Source: Candidatus Pacearchaeota archaeon (GTDB taxonomy: Archaea; Nanobdellota; Nanobdellia; Pacearchaeales; GW2011-AR1). From it: a stretch of DNA of 61,922 nucleotides. Each line of letters opens with the position of its first letter. Position 1 is the first letter of the stretch. The notes under the pieces were generated by a model that saw only the letters and a program-made list of their open reading frames with translations, did no database searches and was not told the origin of the DNA. This document shows positions 4,907 to 61,584 of this stretch, one piece after another. Location: assembly GCA_002688415.1 (NCBI GenBank), contig NZCX01000010.1:1-61922 (forward strand). Reading direction: 5' to 3'. Position numbers and translations under genes: made by a program.

Positions 4907-4907
4907 G

Positions 4908-5066
4908 ATGATTGAGGGTCTACCACTAACTATCTTTCATGCTACAGTGGTATTATTAGGGGGAGTTGTGCTTCTCATGGTGGGATTTCTAAAAGAGATA
5001 GCACGCTCCCCCAGACCCATAAAAGCGAGAAGACGATATGGCAAAAAAACCATTCGTCGCCCATAG
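4908..5066 (+). CDS. Small membrane protein (52 aa, one TM helix plus basic tail)
   Basis: My translation: MIEGLPLTIFHATVVLLGGVVLLMVGFLKEIARSPRPIKARRRYGKKTIRRP; fills the gap between ORFs. Confidence 0.45.
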   Translation: MIEGLPLTIFHATVVLLGGVVLLMVGFLKEIARSPRPIKARRRYGKKTIRRP

Positions 5067-23072: not shown

Positions 23073-23257
23073 CCAGTGTCCTTTGTGTTTTCTTTTTCAC
23101 TAGAATAATCTGGAATCCCTTTTTGAATAACATACCCTGCTCCTGCAAGAAGAAATAGAGGCCACGCATGTACGATCACATATAACACACCAACTCCAAT
23201 AGCGAATCCGATTCCTAGTGAGATTAAGTTAAAGTTAAAATTATTTTCATTGCTCAT
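23069..23257 (-). CDS. Small membrane protein
   Basis: Hydrophobic core. Confidence 0.5.
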   Translation of the reverse strand: MSNENNFNFNLISLGIGFAIGVGVLYVIVHAWPLFLLAGAGYVIQKGIPDYSSEKENTKDTG

Positions 23258-26200
23258 TCTTAATATAGTCCAATTTGGTTATAAAGTTCTCTATATTATC
23301 AATTCCAAAAGAATATAAAGGATTAAATTTCGTTTGATCTTTCGTAATGAAACTGAGACATACTTCATTTGTTGAGCCTTCGTATTCCTTTACTAAACTA
23401 ATAACCTGTTCTACATAATCAATGGGACATTCAATAATTTTTTTACTTACATTACTTATTGATTCTAACTCTAAAGGTTGAATTTTTTCAATGATAAATT
23501 TGGTTATTTTTTCATTTTCTGTACTGGTAACCTCGGTAGATCCAATAAGTACAAGGGGAACACCTTCTTGTAGAAATTCTTTACATTTTGTATAGTTTCT
23601 AGGAAAACAAACAGCCTCAATGGTTCCTGTTAAATCTTCTAAAACAAAAAATGCCATTGATTTTTTAGATTTTGTTGTGATTTCTTTAATGTTTGTAATC
23701 ACCGCACCAAGATTAACTTTGATTTTATTTTCAAATTCTTTTAAAGTTTCTATACTGAAAAAGTTCTTAGCATAATTTTTTGGATCAAAATTTCCAAGTG
23801 GATGATTTGTAATGTAAAATCCTAGCAGCTCATACTCCGCTTGATACAATTCTTTTTCATTTAATTCTAAAAGAGAATCGATATCCGGGAAGCCTAGTAT
23901 TTCAGGAGCAACTGGAAGTTTGAAAGGCTTTAATGCTTTTCCAGTATCTGATTTGATATTGTTTTTAATATCTTCAAGTCTCTGGTGGTATGCTTCTACC
24001 TTTCTTGTGTAAGTTAATAGTTTTCTTTCATATGCCTTGGAGTTCTTCCTGAATTCCCAAACATCATCTATTGCTTTCAGTAAGCTGGCACGATTTTCTT
24101 GCAAGGAATCAAAGCATCCAGCCCTTACCAAGGATTCAATTTTTAATCTATTGATGACTCCAAGATCAACACGTTGACAAAAGTCAGAGAAATTAGAAAA
24201 AGATTTAGATTTTCTTTCATCCATAATGACTGCAACAGGAGTTTCTCCTAAGTTTTTAATTGGGCTTAGCCCAAAACGAATGTTTTCTTGACTATCTACA
24301 TAGAAAGAACTCTTGCTTTCATTTATATCTGGAGGTAGAACATTGATTCCCATTCGACGGCATTCTGCTAAGCACTTGATCATCTCGTCTCTGTTTCCAG
24401 ACTCAGAGATCATTACAGCACACATAAATTCTCTTGGATAGTGTGTCTTTAACCATGCAGTTTGGTATGTAATGTAAGCATAGGCTGCAGCATGAGAGTT
24501 AGAGGTAACGATACCATTATCAACTGTAAATGTATGATTAGGGGCATCCATCTCAATATCGTAAACTTCTTTTTCTCCTACAGATTCTATTGAAACAATT
24601 TTTTCAAGTCTTGTAGAGAGGCCCGCTTCTCCCATTTTTGTTCTACCCATTTGATAATGAGCTTTTTTATGACATCCAGAGCAGAGGGTTTGAAGATTAT
24701 CTAATTTGTTATTTCCATGGTCTCCATCAACATGGTGAACCTCTAGATTCATTTGAGAACTGCAAAGCTCGCAACTAGTTTTCTTTAAATTATTTTGATA
24801 ATATTTTAATTGAGTATAAGGGGTATCTCTTTTTTGAAATCCTTGTTGACCTTTTTCAGGAAGATTGTCTCCAGGAAGATTGAACCTATACATAGTGTCT
24901 TTTGATTTGGAGCCATCGTTTACATATAAGAGATCTTCTTCTATAGATATATCTTCTAGCTTCTTCTCCCCATTAGAAGTTGGAAACTTATGATTTAAAG
25001 TTGTATTTATAGTTAAACCAGATTCTGTTGTGACCTGATAGGTTTCTTTTAAACCTTGGTATCTGATATCAACTATTTTATTTTTAACTAATTTGTTATC
25101 TTTATTTAAAGACCAGGCGTATCCATAACCTTTAGAAATTAATTTATTTCTCATTGGAATTGCATCTATTGAGCGAGCAAAACCACGATCATTTTTTATC
25201 TTATAAAGTTCTGAAATTGTATAGTGCCTACCCTTACTTATTGTAGGTCTATAAAGCTTAGTGTCTCCATCTAAACACTTGTTGAATGCATAGTCACTGA
25301 AAGCAACAATGTCTTCCCAGATTTTATCTGCTTTTTCTAATTCATATCCGTTGGCTTGCCAGCCTTTTTTAAATGCTTCTTCTTGTTGTTTAAGGGTCTC
25401 GGTTTCTTTCTTTCCGATAGCTCTCCGGAGAAGATCAGCATCGGCCATACTAAAACCAGCAAGTTGCTTAACAATTTCAAGGACCTGCTCCTGATATATA
25501 ATCCATCCTGCTGTGGGCTGTAAGATGGGTTCCAATTCTGGAATTAAATATCTTGGTTCACTATTGCCTGCTCGAATATCAAGATAGGTACTCTTATAGT
25601 CAGATCCTAAAGGACCTGGACGATAGATAGCAACCAAAGCAATTAAGTCTTCAAGGCAGCTAGGTCTAATTTGTACCAAAAGGTCCCTCATGCCAGAGCT
25701 TGCCTCCAGTTGAAAGACTCCCGTAGCATTACCTTGCCTTAGGTTTTTGTAAGTTTTAGGATCTTCGAGATCAATAGAATCAATAGTAAAATCTGAAATG
25801 TTGTCATGTCGCTCCTTGATTAGGTCAACACATCTGTGGATCTTACTTAAGGCATCCAGTCCAAGGAAATCAAACTTAATCAAACCATATTGTTCGATGT
25901 TTTTCATTTCCCATTGGGTAGTAATCTCTCCGCTTCTACCTAAGAATAAAGGCACAGTGCTATGTAAGGAATCATTTGAGATAACAATTCCAGATGCATG
26001 TACCCCGGCACTGGAGATAATATCTTCAAGCTTGCAAGCCCAGCGTAATGTTTCACCTTCAGGTCCATTAGATGTACTGTACTTTTTTAATTGTTTTACC
26101 TTTTCAATGGAGGTTTCTAATTTTTGTGGCTTCCCATGTATGGGTTCCAACAACAGGCGAGAAAGCTCATCACCTACAGAATAGGGATGGCCAAGAGTTC

Positions 26201-26660
26201 TAGCAACGTTTCTTACTGCAGCCTTCGCTCTCTGTAAATTGAATGTTCCTATGTGAGCAACATGATCATCACCATACTTATCAGTTACATAATCTATAAC
26301 CTTATCTCGATATCGTTTTTCAAAATCAACATCGATATCAGGCATAGATAGTCTGGCGGGATTTAAAAAACGTTCGAAAATTAACCCGAGTTTTATAGGA
26401 TCTAAATTAGTGATACCTAGACAGTAGCAGGCTAAACTACCTGCTCCTGATCCTCGACCAGGACCAACATAAATATCATTTTGTTTTGCCCAGTTAATGA
26501 AGTCTTGGACAATTAGAAAGTAACCAGCGTAACCCATCTTGTGGATTACTGAAATCTCATAGTTTAATCTATCAATATATATTTGATCGTTTTCTAGATT
26601 TCTATTCTTTAATCCTTTAAAGCATTTAAAAGTAAAGTAACTATCAAGAGTTGCCCCCAT
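23247..26660 (-). CDS. dnaE: DNA polymerase III alpha, catalytic part lacking the PHP domain; intein-containing
   Basis: GPGRGSGAGSL, FERFLNP.R.SMPDIDVDF, HASG, KFDFLGL, GVFQLE, YQEQ, FNK|SHAAAY; SD AGGAG. Confidence 0.95.
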   Translation of the reverse strand: MGATLDSYFTFKCFKGLKNRNLENDQIYIDRLNYEISVIHKMGYAGYFLIVQDFINWAKQNDIYVGPGRGSGAGSLACYCLGITNLDPIKLGLIFERFLNPARLSMPDIDVDFEKRYRDKVIDYVTDKYGDDHVAHIGTFNLQRAKAAVRNVARTLGHPYSVGDELSRLLLEPIHGKPQKLETSIEKVKQLKKYSTSNGPEGETLRWACKLEDIISSAGVHASGIVISNDSLHSTVPLFLGRSGEITTQWEMKNIEQYGLIKFDFLGLDALSKIHRCVDLIKERHDNISDFTIDSIDLEDPKTYKNLRQGNATGVFQLEASSGMRDLLVQIRPSCLEDLIALVAIYRPGPLGSDYKSTYLDIRAGNSEPRYLIPELEPILQPTAGWIIYQEQVLEIVKQLAGFSMADADLLRRAIGKKETETLKQQEEAFKKGWQANGYELEKADKIWEDIVAFSDYAFNKCLDGDTKLYRPTISKGRHYTISELYKIKNDRGFARSIDAIPMRNKLISKGYGYAWSLNKDNKLVKNKIVDIRYQGLKETYQVTTESGLTINTTLNHKFPTSNGEKKLEDISIEEDLLYVNDGSKSKDTMYRFNLPGDNLPEKGQQGFQKRDTPYTQLKYYQNNLKKTSCELCSSQMNLEVHHVDGDHGNNKLDNLQTLCSGCHKKAHYQMGRTKMGEAGLSTRLEKIVSIESVGEKEVYDIEMDAPNHTFTVDNGIVTSNSHAAAYAYITYQTAWLKTHYPREFMCAVMISESGNRDEMIKCLAECRRMGINVLPPDINESKSSFYVDSQENIRFGLSPIKNLGETPVAVIMDERKSKSFSNFSDFCQRVDLGVINRLKIESLVRAGCFDSLQENRASLLKAIDDVWEFRKNSKAYERKLLTYTRKVEAYHQRLEDIKNNIKSDTGKALKPFKLPVAPEILGFPDIDSLLELNEKELYQAEYELLGFYITNHPLGNFDPKNYAKNFFSIETLKEFENKIKVNLGAVITNIKEITTKSKKSMAFFVLEDLTGTIEAVCFPRNYTKCKEFLQEGVPLVLIGSTEVTSTENEKITKFIIEKIQPLELESISNVSKKIIECPIDYVEQVISLVKEYEGSTNEVCLSFITKDQTKFNPLYSFGIDNIENFITKLDYIKNEQ
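24498..25277 (-). mobile_element. Intein (260 aa) with embedded HNH homing endonuclease
   Basis: Interrupts the conserved FNK-SHA motif; starts CLDGDT, block B TLNHKF, block F VYDIEM..PNHTF, ends VTSN before Ser; HNH CELC..LEVHHVDG..NN..NL.TLC..CH. Confidence 0.9.
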
Positions 26661-42608: not shown

Positions 42609-43130
42609 TCAACCCCATTTTAACATTTGGGGGACAGCTGCCTGTAGCAACTCTTTCATTACAATCAGCTCATCCCCAGATAGAGGAACTTGATGGTTTT
42701 TATTTTGTCCACCAGCAGATTGAGAAGCTCTTACCATGCATCCATTAGCTGTTCCTTTGGGGGAGGCTAAATATAGATTCTTTTTAACTAATCCTTGGGA
42801 TTCACTTTTAGCTCCTGGATCATGCATGATGCTGCATTCTTGACCAGTGTATAGTGAATGAAGGATTTTACCGACATCGGTAACTGACAAAGCAAGAACA
42901 ATCTTGTTTTCCCAATCATAGACATTTCTATCTTTTGTGCTGGTAATCTCCATAAAGATAGTTCCTTCACGGATTTTCCATCCATCTCTTAAGGATCCAT
43001 TCTCCATGGCTTCATAACCTGTGTAATCTTTGTTTTTGCCTGAATAAAAATGTGGAGGTTGTAAATTCAATTGAATTGCTCCCCATTTTCCAGCCATACC
43101 TTTGTATATAGAATATTGTAATGGTCTCAT
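42609..43130 (-). CDS. Whirly-family ssDNA-binding protein
   Basis: YSIYKG..GA, YDWENKIVLALSVTDVG, HDP...S.QG.VKK.L, VPLS..E...VP..LKW, colinear with plant Whirly. Confidence 0.75.
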   Translation of the reverse strand: MRPLQYSIYKGMAGKWGAIQLNLQPPHFYSGKNKDYTGYEAMENGSLRDGWKIREGTIFMEITSTKDRNVYDWENKIVLALSVTDVGKILHSLYTGQECSIMHDPGAKSESQGLVKKNLYLASPKGTANGCMVRASQSAGGQNKNHQVPLSGDELIVMKELLQAAVPQMLKWG

Positions 43131-46342: not shown

Positions 46343-46930
46343 TTATAAGAAATTTTTCCAATATTCATTTTGAACCTTATCGAATGGAGTTCCAATATGA
46401 GATTTCCATTCAGGAGCTACAGGTTGCTTTTTAAGCTGCCATCCGAGTGTATCCAATGTCTGACTTCCCTTCTTACCATTACAGTATTTGCAGGAAGTTA
46501 CAACGTTTTCCCACGTACTTTTTCCACCTTTACTCTTGGGATGTACGTGGTCTAATGTACGGATGTTATTTTTACATTTTGTTCCACAATATTGACATTT
46601 ATTTCCATCTCTTTTGTAGATGTTATATCTGGAATATTTGACTGTTTTAATTATTTCAATTCCAGCAGTGGTATCTATTTTGATTACTCTTGGAATATAA
46701 ATGGAAATTGATGGAGAAGAGATCTTTCCTACATATTTTGCAGCTTCAAGTGGAAGATTATCGATTAAAGAACTGTATTTTATCCATTCATTAAGATTTC
46801 GTATTGTATATGTTTCATCAATTACACTTGCTTTACCTGTATATAAAGCACAAATGGCATCCTTAGCTATTCCAACTTTAACAGCTAAAAAATACTTATT
46901 TAAAATTAATACTTCACTACATAGAGACAT
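46343..46930 (-). CDS. HNH endonuclease (McrA / HNH_5-like)
   Basis: VLILN, RDGNKCQYCG, TLDHVHPKSKGG..TWENVVTSC..CN..KG. Confidence 0.9.
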   Translation of the reverse strand: MSLCSEVLILNKYFLAVKVGIAKDAICALYTGKASVIDETYTIRNLNEWIKYSSLIDNLPLEAAKYVGKISSPSISIYIPRVIKIDTTAGIEIIKTVKYSRYNIYKRDGNKCQYCGTKCKNNIRTLDHVHPKSKGGKSTWENVVTSCKYCNGKKGSQTLDTLGWQLKKQPVAPEWKSHIGTPFDKVQNEYWKNFL

Positions 46931-47747
46931 AACTTAATTTTTTATGGTAATACTCACTTAATTTATGATAAGTAACTTCGTCTATTGACTTAATATAAGC
47001 CAAATAACCATTTGTTACAGAATCAATTGGTTGTGCATTTATTGCTAGGTTTTGTAATCTAGCTCTTATTAATCGTTTGATTTGTCGTCTAGAAATAGAT
47101 TCTAGACTTACTCCTGCTACAATCTTAGCATCGTTATTACCTTTTCCATACCATTTTGTTTTCTTTTTATTGATAGGAAATCCCGCTCCAATCACCATTC
47201 CTTTGATTGTCTCAATTATTGCCCAGTCACGTTTATCTGCGGTAGTTGATAAATTTAAATCATCCATATATCTACTGTATTGATAACCCCATCTAACAGC
47301 AGCTTTACTTATGTAATAATCTATTCTAGATAAAACAATATTACAGATAATAGGACTGGTGGGGGCTCCAGTAGGAAGCATATTTTTGCCTTCCCAATTA
47401 ATAAAACAAGTATCTAGATTTTCTAGCATTTGTTTTTTGATATTTCCTTGAGGGAAATTACGATTAATTGCTTCGTAAGCCATATATGGAGTTATATTTT
47501 GATAACAATTAGAAATATCTACCTTTAGAAGATATTTAGCTCCTAAATGAGGTAAAGCGGCATCAAGAGGGCCACTACCTTTTTTACAAGCACAAGCGGG
47601 GGGAAGAGGATAAAGCTCATATAGAGATATTAATTTTTTTTGCTTATTCTTTAATTCTGGAGAAGGTTGTTGAATTAATCTTTTTTTGTTCGAATTTTTT
47701 TGACCAATGTAATAAATATCATAATTTTTTTGGAGTCTTTCTGGCAT
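46917..47747 (-). CDS. Retron-type reverse transcriptase (276 aa)
   Basis: KKRLI.QP...LK, region X AALPH, KVDISNCYQNI, LPTGAPTSP..CN, YSRYMDDL, INKKKT, region Y VAG. Confidence 0.88.
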   Translation of the reverse strand: MPERLQKNYDIYYIGQKNSNKKRLIQQPSPELKNKQKKLISLYELYPLPPACACKKGSGPLDAALPHLGAKYLLKVDISNCYQNITPYMAYEAINRNFPQGNIKKQMLENLDTCFINWEGKNMLPTGAPTSPIICNIVLSRIDYYISKAAVRWGYQYSRYMDDLNLSTTADKRDWAIIETIKGMVIGAGFPINKKKTKWYGKGNNDAKIVAGVSLESISRRQIKRLIRARLQNLAINAQPIDSVTNGYLAYIKSIDEVTYHKLSEYYHKKLSYVSM

Positions 47748-48114
47748 TTGCTGAATTCCGTTTTTGATAATTATTATTTGAAGGCTTTTTGCCTTTTTTA
47801 TAATTTTGTTTTTTTCTTTTCTTTTTAATAAAAGGTTTTCGTTCTTTTTTCTGCATTAATTCTTTTAAAGAAGAACCAGATCTTGCGGCTTTTAATCCAG
47901 TAATTCGTTCATAACAGATAGCACAAACAGCTATTTCTTTTGCTATTTCCCAACCTTCTATTTCTTCAACAATGCCTCTTTTCTTACCTTTTTTAATGAT
48001 TCTTTTGTAAGTTTTAGGGCGTTTTTCAACAATAATTGAATTTTTCGGTTGTCTATAGGGGGTATTAGGAGTTCCCCCTTTTTGTTTACATTTAAAGGCT
48101 TGGCATTTATACAT
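47719..48114 (-). CDS. Highly basic Cys-containing small protein, candidate RT accessory
   Basis: Start set at ATG 48114 (MYKCQAFKC); CAIC; Lys-rich tail; stop overlaps the RT start by 29 nt. Confidence 0.6.
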   Translation of the reverse strand: MYKCQAFKCKQKGGTPNTPYRQPKNSIIVEKRPKTYKRIIKKGKKRGIVEEIEGWEIAKEIAVCAICYERITGLKAARSGSSLKELMQKKERKPFIKKKRKKQNYKKGKKPSNNNYQKRNSANARKTPKKL

Positions 48115-48535
48115 GATGATAATCTTTCTAAATCTTAACAATCCCGAGTCCTGAGGGAGGGGAAAAGATCCAAAATAAACTTAATTCTAAAATCAAGGAA
48201 GGTCAAGCTTTAATTTTAGAATGACCAAAAACTTATCTTGAATTTTTTCTTTCCCCGTCTGACTCAGTTTATTTGAGTTTGCCAGGTTAATTTAAAATTG
48301 ATCAATTTAATTAATTTATTAAAATTATTAAATTCTCATTTTCGGATAACCGAATAATTTTTCCGGCAGCCTTAAATTCGTGCAGCGTTATCCCTTCCCG
48401 TTACAACTAGTCACGGGAAACGCTGCAGATCAGCTCAGCTCTCCGGAGGAGACCTGAAAGCAAGCTCAAACTGTTTAGCTAGGGCAGAGAGTTGGACATC
48501 CTGTCGAAGTCTCTGCCCTAAATAAAGTATCATCA
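48114..48535 (-). ncRNA. Candidate retron-like ncRNA (msr/msd-like multi-hairpin RNA)
   Basis: Terminal IR TGATGATA 48114-48121 / TATCATCA 48528-48535; stems 48480-48490/48510-48520 (11 bp), 48435-48457, 48381-48427, 48341-48354; long rod 48146-48267. Confidence 0.55.
48298..48325 (+). promoter_or_regulatory. Possible antisense sigma70-type promoter inside a 14-bp palindrome
   Basis: TTGATC-N16-TAAAAT; AAATTGATCAATTT palindrome at 48295-48308. Confidence 0.3.
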
Positions 48536-48562
48536 GCTTAGCGAAAACGCTCAGCTTTTTTT
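48535..48562 (+). terminator. Intrinsic-terminator-like hairpin on the + strand
   Basis: AGCTTAGCG-AAAA-CGCTCAGCT (one mismatch) followed by a T run to 48562. Confidence 0.45.
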
Positions 48563-49069
48563 GGATAAACCACAAGTACACTTTCGTGTTTTTTGATTTA
48601 ACCTACCAATATGTTTGGTAATATACACATCACATTCTGATTTATGTACTAGATATGGAGAAACATCTTCTTTATAATTTTCAATTGATTTCTTTTGATT
48701 TTTAATTTTCTTTTTGTGATTTTTAATCTCAAGAGAAGCCAAATTTAGAGCATGTAACAATTCTTTGTTTTTTTCTTTTTCTGTTTCTAGTTCTTCATGC
48801 AATTGACCATTTTTTAATGAAAACAAATGAATTTGACTTAAGGCACTTTCTGGAGTGTTTCTTGGAAGCCCATAGTCATTAGCTAATATTTTTTGAGTAG
48901 TAACTGGAAGATTTAATCTTTCCTCATATTCTGATTTCCATTTCCAGGAATTGATAAAATCTTTTTCTTCTGTAAATTCGTTTTTTTCGTAATCAAAAGT
49001 AGTATAACTAGTCATATTTAGGACACCATCTTGAATGTGTTGTTTTTGCCTTATCTCCTCCACACTCAC
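48551..49069 (-). CDS. Hypothetical coiled-coil protein with C-terminal H/C Zn motif
   Basis: H...C...CTCG at the C-terminus; start uncertain. Confidence 0.55.
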   Translation of the reverse strand: MSVEEIRQKQHIQDGVLNMTSYTTFDYEKNEFTEEKDFINSWKWKSEYEERLNLPVTTQKILANDYGLPRNTPESALSQIHLFSLKNGQLHEELETEKEKNKELLHALNLASLEIKNHKKKIKNQKKSIENYKEDVSPYLVHKSECDVYITKHIGRLNQKTRKCTCGLSKKS

Positions 49070-50163: not shown

Positions 50164-50221
50164 AAAAATATCCCCGCGTTATATATTCTTTTAGAATAGA
50201 AAAAAAATAAAAAAAAATTTA

Positions 50222-50313
50222 AAAATTGAGTTGGGAGCAGATCAGATCAATGACCTGATCCACTCCTTCATCGCCCTCGTTGTTAAGTCTGAGGAGGACT
50301 ATAACTCAATTTT
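50222..50313 (-). ncRNA. Structured three-way-junction RNA element
   Basis: 11-bp closing IR AAAATTGAGTT/AACTCAATTTT; 15-bp stem with three G-U pairs that form only on the - strand; followed by long U tracts. Confidence 0.55.
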
Positions 50314-50386
50314 ATTAACATCCAGTGTTCATTATCGTTACTTGACGAACCATCAAGTTTTGTACGTTACCAGAAACTATCTAATT

Positions 50387-51487: not shown

Positions 51488-51632
51488 TAACTTTAATTAA
51501 GTTATTTCTTTTCCTCAGGAGAGAAGAAAGCTCTTTTTTTAGAACTACCCTCTTCTCTCCTGAAAGAAATTGATCAAATTCTAGCCTATGCGTTATTGAT
51601 AATATTCTACTTGTCAATTGACGCAAAGCTAG
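51486..51632 (-). ncRNA. Structured intergenic RNA / leader (three adjacent hairpins)
   Basis: 13-bp perfect stem 51515-51527/51551-51563; stems 51581-51632 and 51486-51506. Confidence 0.45.
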
Positions 51633-51647
51633 TTCCACTTTTATTCC

Positions 51648-61418: not shown

Positions 61419-61495
61419 TGGCGCGTCCAGCAGGACTCGAACCTGCAACCCCCGGCTTAGAAGGCCGGTGCTCTATCCAGTTGAGCTATGGACGC
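61419..61495 (-). tRNA. tRNA-Arg(UCU)
   Basis: Cloverleaf GCGTCCA...CCGGC-CT-TCT-AA-GCCGG...GGTTCGAGTCC...TGGACGC-G-CCA, 77 nt, CCA encoded. Confidence 0.95.
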
Positions 61496-61498
61496 CCA

Positions 61499-61584
61499 TG
61501 GTGCGGAAGAAGGGAATCGAACCCTCATGCTCTAAGAGCGACGGATTTTAAGTCCGTTGTGTCTACCAGTTTCACCACAACCGC
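61499..61584 (-). tRNA. tRNA-Leu(UAA)
   Basis: ACGGA-CT-TAA-AA-TCCGT, long variable arm, TTCGA loop, CCA encoded; two U-U mismatches in the acceptor stem. Confidence 0.85.

Follow-up and report, generated by a model that had tools for sequence, protein, structure and literature searches.

A long, structured element upstream of a retron-clade reverse transcriptase in phage-like DNA: a candidate retron RNA

Retrons, carried by bacteria or prophages, are known to act against phages and serve as tools of genome editing. The subject here is a 61,922-nt stretch of DNA (contig NZCX01000010.1 of assembly GCA_002688415.1, hereafter the window), on whose minus strand a first-pass annotation, made from the letters alone, had placed a candidate retron RNA with its msr and msd parts. 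The ~440 nt from 48556 to 48114 of that strand are, with near certainty, a real, conserved and highly structured element, lying upstream of a small open reading frame (ORF), ORF131, and of the gene for a retron-clade reverse transcriptase (RT). That this element is the cognate RNA of the RT is quite probable. As for how it works, the best single explanation is the retron msr/msd mechanism, with a long hairpin near the 3′ end, the rod, as msd; we put the probability of this reading at roughly 0.55. A retron RNA is defined by a terminal inverted repeat, msr hairpins and one long msd stem-loop (PMC7736814; PMC12475279), and the terminal inverted repeat, the stems and the guanosine G48518 of the first-pass annotation were all found again where it had drawn them.

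The element runs from a first small hairpin (P0) through hairpin 1, a fast-evolving cluster of GC-rich hairpins and an AU-rich hairpin to the rod of 117 nt. Its parts are:

48535-48556, minus strand: P0, a small conserved hairpin, AGCUGAGCG-UUUU-CGCUAAGCU, which overlaps the stop codon of ORF172
48524-48535, minus strand: 5′ arm of a long-range helix (a1-like), UGAUGAUA plus CUUU; it includes the invariant G48531-A48530
48478-48521, minus strand: hairpin 1, with an 11-bp perfect stem, conserved internal loops and an inner stem; it includes G48518
48381-48470, minus strand: GC-rich hairpins 2 and 3, the hypervariable middle section; hairpin 3 is 48427-48381
48295-48354, minus strand: a small hairpin, UUCGG-UUAU-CCGAA (48354-48341), and an AU-rich hairpin (48334-48295), 5′ of the rod
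48151-48267, minus strand: the rod, a long conserved msd-like hairpin whose base, CUGAG/CUCAG, is followed by GGGG.../...CCCC, by a middle helix rich in G-U pairs and by an apical stem
48178-48206, minus strand: a promoter-like motif in the rod, TTGACC, 17 nt, TAAGTT
48114-48129, minus strand: a probable Shine-Dalgarno (SD) sequence, AGAAAG (48129-48124), and the 3′ arm of the long-range helix (a2-like), AAAG..UAUCAUCA, which ends on the A of the start codon

Folded on either strand, a check that the first-pass annotation had proposed, the 446-nt stretch is more stable than its dinucleotide shuffles (z = -6.5 on the minus and -9.8 on the plus strand). No gap of the window is longer or more structured than this one, which has -0.33 kcal/nt where most others have -0.15 to -0.2, and a GC content of 39% where the window has 34%. 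Three further intergenic gaps of the window fold well (4907-5037, 50164-50386 and 51488-51647; -0.25 to -0.33 kcal/nt), and that at 50164-50386 shows a clear preference for the minus strand.

The comparison with relatives says more. Homologues of the RT form 34 clusters, all metagenomic and unannotated; the comparison covered loci of most of these. Twelve loci from independent metagenomes (single loci carry L numbers below) are syntenic with the window, with RTs 56-99% identical, and have in common a set order: upstream genes, a non-coding gap of 350-775 nt, a small ORF, the RT, usually an HNH nuclease, an aminotransferase and a ClpP-like protein. These 12 phage loci share the conserved 5′ hairpin plus GCUGAUGA. 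Compared with L046, the closest relative, the RT, the small protein and the HNH are 77, 85 and 82% identical and the flanks 78 and 90%; compared with L057, the RT and the small protein are 56 and 50% identical and the flanks 50 and 68%. Because the proteins diverge in parallel with the flanking phage genes, those for the aminotransferase and the ClpP-like protein, the module is an old, vertically inherited resident of a phage lineage.

Across the loci, the 5′ block, which consists of AGCUGAGCG-N4-CGCUAAGCU (P0) and then GAUGA, is nearly invariant. The sequence of P0 hardly varies over 12 loci; its 8 pairs are 93.8% paired, with one compensatory change. In L056 and L065, P0 comes only a good way after the ORF upstream has ended, which makes it part of the element and not the mere end of an ORF. 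Read on the plus strand (48535-48566), it is a hairpin followed by seven T, which has the look of an intrinsic terminator; P0 as a terminator was rejected, there being no U-run on the gene strand and the T-run of the plus strand not being conserved in most relatives.

Hairpin 1 follows directly. Its shape is kept among the loci, and its sequence is almost wholly changed. The 11-bp perfect stem with symmetric mismatches that had been drawn at 48480-48520 is present: 48520-48510 pairs with 48490-48480, and symmetric mismatches flank the inner stem. Thirteen of the 17 pairs have changed on both sides, pairing stands at 87.8% against 24-39% when the partner is slid, and none of 500 shuffles reaches this level of covariation. 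Hairpin 1 is a candidate "handle" for the RT.

The rod, 100-165 nt long among the relatives, covaries as well. Fifteen of its 42 pairs are compensatory, and pairing stands at 88.9%, a share that sliding lowers to 58.5% or less; the observed value is reached by 0 of 500 shuffles. The first-pass annotation had let its reading hang on covariation in homologues; in 10 loci, both hairpin 1 and the rod proved rich in compensatory changes. On the gene strand of the rod, G-U cells stand to A-C cells as 30:14. The base is conserved in sequence, ACUGAGUCAGACGGG ... CCCCUCCCUCAGG, and so is GCUUGACC in the apical loop. The 10-bp core (48184-48193/48213-48222) and the middle helix that depends on G-U pairs are as first described. 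A hairpin stands immediately 5′ of the rod in 8 of the 9 relatives folded, the exception being L018. A covariance model of the rod, R1, scores 73-136 bits in 12 loci and ~40 bits in L057, L065 and L066; among 201 related genomes, it matches only in the window's own. Pattern scans for the rod found no match in IMG/VR and, in GTDB genomes, only 5 chance matches.

Between the two covarying domains, the middle section evolves much faster than the proteins of the module. Its hairpins vary in number, length and sequence and are unalignable even between the window and L046, where the RT is 77% identical. Of the two GC-rich stems first reported here, that of hairpin 3 is confirmed, with arms of 9 and 10 bp; the other, 48435-48457, exists, and the minimum free energy fold draws this part differently. 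In the variable sections of L003, L005, L049, L060 and L062, two motifs recur: a palindromic hairpin, GUGCGCAU-N3-5-AUGCGCAC, and CUGCAG.

What would close such an RNA? The 5′ arm UGAUGAUA (48535-48528) is perfectly complementary to UAUCAUCA (48121-48114), where A48114 is the A of the ORF131 ATG, and beyond a 2-nt bulge CUUU (48527-48524) pairs further with AAAG (48127-48124); the 8-bp terminal inverted repeat and its extension had been read correctly. In the partition function of the whole RNA, the core seven pairs of the window (G48534-A48528) reach 0.79-0.97 and the CUUU/AAAG extension 0.45-0.54. Pairing of the GAUGA region with the tail (from the rod to the start codon), by arms 400-570 nt apart, is predicted by such folds with a probability of 0.8-1.0 in 7 of 11 loci: the window, L046, L003, L005, L049, L059 and L062. 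The 3′ arm of most loci (UCAUCAG, UAUCAG, CGUUAG) lies 3-4 nt past the rod, just before an AGAAAGG SD sequence. In the window and in L046, this older site has decayed to AUUUAG, and a new complement sits between the SD and the start codon; in the window, the distance from the rod to the 3′ arm is ~30 nt. In most loci, then, a long covarying hairpin lies beside the 3′ arm, as would be expected if the rod is msd-like in the sense of the first-pass annotation. In L046 the partners are GAUCAUUA and UGAUGAUC; compared with UAUCAUCA/UGAUGAUA of the window, an A-U pair has become C-G by a double change, and L056 has a U-A to C-G change at the older 3′ site. Overall, support for the closing helix is modest.

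The genes next to the element all lie on the minus strand, and no ORF was found in the gap 48142-48550:

48551-49069, minus strand: ORF172, the upstream neighbour of the gap
48142-48550, minus strand: the non-coding gap, 409 nt
47719-48114, minus strand: ORF131, a basic Cys4 zinc-ribbon protein, 131 aa, with its ATG at 48114; it overlaps the RT start by 29 nt
46917-47747, minus strand: the retron-clade RT, 276 aa, with the motifs YMDD, AALPH and VAG
46343-46930, minus strand: a PtuB-like HNH nuclease, 195 aa, which overlaps the RT end by 14 nt

By its sequence, the RT is a member of the retron clade. The 25 PADLOC matches listed for it are all retron RT models (RT_II-A, 6.8e-43; RT_I-A, 5.2e-40), and among solved structures it matches retron Ec86 (1.8e-24) and Ec78/Ec83 (~5e-20). 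Retron RTs carry the motifs NAXXH (PMC7736814; PMC12475279) and VTG. The window RT reads D-A-A-L-P-H, where AxxH is retained and N has become A, and with its close relatives it has VAG in place of VTG, the G being invariant. N-A/S-x-x-H is present in 9 of 9 distant clade members (37-44% identity; L007-L017, L041/L042), and ITG or VTG in distant members and in P0017. Since the distant members have the canonical NAxxH and I/VTG, the clade is retron by published criteria (PMC7736814) and the subclade of the window is derived.

The distant loci retain all three genes, for the small zinc-ribbon protein, the RT and the HNH. Before the small ORF, they (L011 and L013 included) have a structured, partly covarying RNA of ~350-440 nt with a different 3′ domain, so that an upstream RNA of great length seems to characterise the clade as a whole. 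Homology of the rod with the 3′ domain of this distant subfamily (L011/L013) was considered and dropped, as model R1 gave no match there. In L007, L010, L011, L013 and L042, the RT module is downstream of phage tRNA arrays (tRNA gene positions: L011, 2307-2601; L013, 2116-2581; L042, 2560-2650; L010, 2156-2243), and in four distant loci tRNA-Ser(GCT) is immediately 5′ of the structured RNA.

The partners of the RT have their own stories. ORF131 has homologues in 45 clusters, found only in metagenomes, and C4, C9, C64 and C67 are invariant in 17 of the homologues. It has no match in Pfam, PHROG or PADLOC and no fold match in the PDB; its predicted structure (mean predicted local distance difference test score, pLDDT, 78.6) features a long beta-hairpin. 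A programmed, gag-pol-like frameshift between ORF131 and the RT was rejected: the offset is +1, the overlap is 23-29 nt in close relatives, and distant ones have none. Simple translational coupling is the likelier meaning of the overlap. The HNH resembles PtuB of Septu and of type I-A retrons (PADLOC, 7.6e-11) and is absent from L057, L058, L059 and L065. In two independent contigs, L065 (2140-2962) and L066 (1758-2574), the RT is split into ORFs of 101 aa/78 aa and 153 aa and there is no HNH; the rod, hairpin 1 and the small ORF persist, and almost nothing is left of the long-range helix. The copy may be in decay. In L049 (4902-5369) and L060 (2341-2808), a further gene, for an HNH_3/AP2 homing endonuclease, stands between the retron-linked HNH and the aminotransferase.

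As for the wider setting, the window is a complete 61.9-kb contig, binned in a 0.8-Mb genome. Its gene content is phage-like: a 1477-aa protein of the virion/baseplate type, a primase-helicase, a DnaE-type polymerase, a ribonucleotide reductase, a ClpP-like protease and two tRNAs, Arg(TCT) and Leu(TAA), whose genes are adjacent (61419-61584, minus strand). The gene after the HNH, starting 12 nt on, encodes a class-V aminotransferase, and the relatives of this enzyme in IMG/VR are only ~32% identical. No homologue more than 33% identical was found in deposited phage genomes. In the DnaE-type polymerase (23247-26660, minus strand; 1137 aa), residues ~609-754 match many HNH-endonuclease PHROGs, which suggests an HNH or intein-like insertion. 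The gene downstream of the ClpP-like gene (42609-43130, minus strand) is syntenic in L057 (4550-4790), L058 and L059, and precomputed annotation gives its counterpart in relatives a Whirly (PF08536) single-stranded-DNA-binding domain, unusual for a phage.

A number of observations weigh against the retron reading, and one concerns the branch point. An invariant guanosine is a defining feature of retron RNAs (PMC12475279). The first-pass annotation had nominated G48518, the first G after AUUUA, and had itself remarked that it falls in a predicted stem. Lying within hairpin 1, this guanosine is paired in every locus, and L003, L005 and L061 have A in its place; since it is neither conserved nor free, it cannot be the invariant guanosine, and the nomination is withdrawn. 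No other invariant, unpaired G after the 5′ arm can be aligned among the loci compared, and the window and L060 have no unpaired G at all between the 5′ arm and hairpin 1. The geometry itself is uneven. A G is directly 3′ of the predicted 5′ arm, as is canonical, in L003, L005, L059 and L049 (within 1 nt in L056), and there is none directly after the arm in the window, L046 and L060. The Gs that never change are G48531, which is part of the helix, and G48259, in the never-varying AGA within the CUGAG/CUCAG base of the rod. Type I-A retrons prime from A7-G8 (PMC12475279), which the invariant A48260-G48259-A48258 of the rod resembles. A compact alternative, with the rod alone as the retron RNA, CUGAG/CUCAG as its repeat and this "AG" as its primer, was not adopted because no msr stem-loop would be left inside the repeat.

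The size of the RNA is a further difficulty. Retron RNAs follow a pattern of 1-3 msr hairpins and one msd hairpin (PMC7736814). The element of the relatives has 350-590 nt and at least five hairpins, as the first-pass doubt about its length had foreseen, and its "msr" side alone has at least five hairpins in 250-470 nt. The usual length of a retron noncoding RNA (ncRNA) is ~150-250 nt; we know of no described retron RNA as large, this one being 2-3 times longer. The closing helix is weak in L018, L056, L060 and L065, and it slides by a few nt on the 5′ side among loci. In the window, 4% of control windows match or beat its duplex energy, in line with the earlier caution that an 8-bp repeat is weak evidence; the ranks of the good cases, locus by locus, are 0.04-0.08, and the combined test over 7 lineages gives p = 0.009, a value that overstates independence because the lineages share ancestry. 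The Rfam search returned only tRNAs at the gathering threshold in the window, and on 48050-48650, even at E <= 10, no family of relevance; the matches do not include msr, group II intron, HEARO, GOLLD or ROOL. To these points are added the RT score on its best NCBIfam family, retron_St85_RT (156 bits, under the 235 cut-off), its motifs AALPH, VAG and YMDD in the place of NAXXH, VTG and YADD, and folding energies that do not differ consistently between sense and antisense. Equal stability of the two strands would be expected of a template whose complementary DNA (cDNA) must fold too, and equally of DNA-level repeats. Lastly, the most invariant letters of the rod, TTGACC and UAAG, are unpaired, and their spacing is kept at 17 nt like that of a DNA promoter. 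In sum, the retron RNA first proposed stands as regards the retron-clade RT downstream on the same strand, the covarying hairpins and the recurrent closing helix, and falls short in the branch G and the size.

Is the element, then, a leader? The motif in the rod reads TTGACC-N17-TAAGTW. TTGACC, in the apical loop, and the TAA core of the second hexamer (TAAGTT, TAAGTA or TAAATT, in the 3′ internal loop) are invariant in 10 aligned rods, and a scan with a consensus promoter did not call TTGACC-N17-TAAGTT. From its sequence, the motif may be a sigma-70-type promoter of the ORF131-RT-HNH operon, as an added function of the rod. Taken further, the whole element would be a cis-regulatory leader that is never reverse transcribed: a processing or regulatory region of a polycistronic phage transcript, with RNase III-type hairpins such as lie between the T7 early genes, a promoter at the rod apex driving ORF131-RT-HNH and a long-range pairing that tunes translation beside the SD. 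We consider this unlikely. It would account well for the 17-nt spacing, which is exact in every rod, even in the rebuilt apices of L018, L057 and L065, for the survival of both hexamers in L065/L066 despite the split RT and the lost HNH, and for a 3′ arm that always abuts or overlaps the SD/start region; the structured gaps at 4907-5037, 50164-50386 and 51488-51647 and the equal stability of both strands, which fits DNA-level inverted repeats, also suit it. However, the second hexamer is poor (TAAGTT, or in six loci TAAGTA, with A at the critical last position) and escapes the consensus scan, and a promoter leaves unexplained the 15 + 13 compensated pairs, the G-U excess of 30:14 and a 5′ block 290-470 nt upstream. 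It leaves unexplained, too, that the largest and most structured gap stands exactly before a retron-clade RT, when an adjacent ncRNA is what defines such RTs (PMC7736814).

Another way out would keep the RNA with the RT and abandon the retron mechanism: the RT and the zinc-ribbon protein would bind it as a scaffold, or as the template of some other cDNA (from the variable hairpins, or repetitive as in defence-associated RTs, DRTs), and no 2′-5′ branched multicopy single-stranded DNA would arise. The giant size, the many hairpins, the want of a conserved branch G and the derived motifs AALPH, VAG and YMDD of the window subclade would all sit comfortably with such a mechanism, as would a conserved novel partner without a known fold, a hypervariable middle that far outpaces the proteins, and a distant subfamily whose different 3′ domain has a local closing helix of its own. 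Yet the best matches of the RT are all true retron RTs, with the Drt2-5 and AbiA models far lower, no long ORF or repeat lies within the RNA, and the geometry of L003, L059 and L049 (5′ arm, G ... rod, 3-4 nt, 3′ arm) is classically retron-like; we rate this explanation as improbable. A third one, that the signal is an antisense RNA of the plus strand or a set of inverted repeats acting as DNA (an origin, a packaging or a recombination site) and has nothing to do with the RT, is hardly credible. The better plus-strand z (-9.8), the terminator-like P0 with its seven T in the window and the even sense and antisense energies speak for it; the T-run is missing in most relatives, G-U prevails over A-C by 30:14 on the gene strand of the rod, the neighbouring genes are all on the minus strand, and the element is always tied to the RT operon.

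How might a retron of this kind operate? In the msr/msd reading, the RNA would be closed by GAUGAUA(CUUU) pairing with (AAAG)UAUCAUC. The RT, probably with the basic zinc-ribbon protein, would dock on the 5′ block and hairpin 1, much as retron RTs do on msr stem-loop 1. Priming would occur from the 2′-OH of a G close to where the 5′ arm ends on its inner side, and the RT, beginning on the 3′ side of the rod, would make from it a hairpin cDNA of ~100-120 nt; the same rod might also carry the sigma-70-type promoter of the operon. Given that the module is inherited vertically with the phage backbone and that some relatives can dispense with the HNH, one can speculate that the complex of cDNA and RT probably serves the phage, by excluding competitors or as a decoy against host defence, and is not a toxin switch for abortive infection of the host.

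Four traits would probably make such a system a new retron variant: residence in a phage, a giant RNA, a new zinc-ribbon partner and an optional HNH. The literature searched yielded no account of a retron that belongs to the core genome of lytic phages. That the module keeps its synteny across diverged large phages, apparently of the lytic type, would imply that this retron works to the advantage of the virus. The range of designs known for retron RNAs would widen to 350-590 nt, with a modular hairpin cluster and a new protein partner, and a long modular template RNA could help retron-based DNA production. Put together, the picture becomes tentative and, as a whole, rather doubtful: a retron lineage as a core, vertical module of large uncultured marine phages, with a giant ncRNA bearing a hypervariable cluster, a zinc-ribbon partner that binds RNA or DNA, an optional HNH, a cDNA made for the benefit of the phage (as a decoy or sensor against host defence or rival phages) and a template hairpin that may house a promoter.

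Several known systems invite comparison. DRT2, DRT3 and similar systems also pair a compact RT with a conserved, structured upstream ncRNA of several hundred nt; however, the Drt2, Drt3a and Drt3b models score only 31-48 bits here, far under their cut-offs, and the RNA has neither a repeat-junction ORF nor a repeat signature. Long imperfect hairpins in the gaps of phage operons recall the RNase III hairpins and leaders of the T7 type, from which the element differs in being larger, multi-domain and strictly RT-linked, with a conserved 5′ block and a long-range closing helix. A group II intron would likewise bring an RT and an HNH beside 400-600 nt of structured RNA and occurs in phage genomes, but here the RT and the HNH are separate genes and no host gene is interrupted. 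That candidate was rejected: no match to the Rfam D1-D4 or domain V/VI models appears even at E <= 10, the RT, of the wrong clade, scores 42 bits on group_II_RT_mat (TIGR04416; cut-off 300), and the aminotransferase gene, starting 12 nt past the HNH, leaves no room for 3′ domains. A diversity-generating retroelement was rejected too, the 62-kb window holding no copy of the gap in the manner of template and variable repeats (TR/VR) beyond chance matches of 11-18 nt.

The closest systems are the type I-A/II-A retrons (Retron-Eco7/Ec78, Eco4/Ec83, Sen2/St85, Eco1/Ec86). They have a PtuA ATPase or an NDT effector, which is missing here, and no zinc-ribbon protein between the ncRNA and the RT; their ncRNA has ~150-250 nt and 1-3 msr hairpins, against 350-590 nt and at least five hairpins. 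The AALPH/VAG/YMDD motifs, the want of an alignable invariant branch G and the loss of the HNH in some relatives also set the phage module apart, as does its place as a vertical part of a large phage genome, not as cargo of a defence island or prophage. On the other hand, their RTs are the closest both by profile hidden Markov models and among solved structures, their ncRNA lies directly upstream on the same strand, and the HNH resembles the PtuB of type I-A. The architecture is also theirs, with an inverted repeat at the ends, a first stem-loop that is conserved and, beside the 3′ arm, a long 3′ hairpin.

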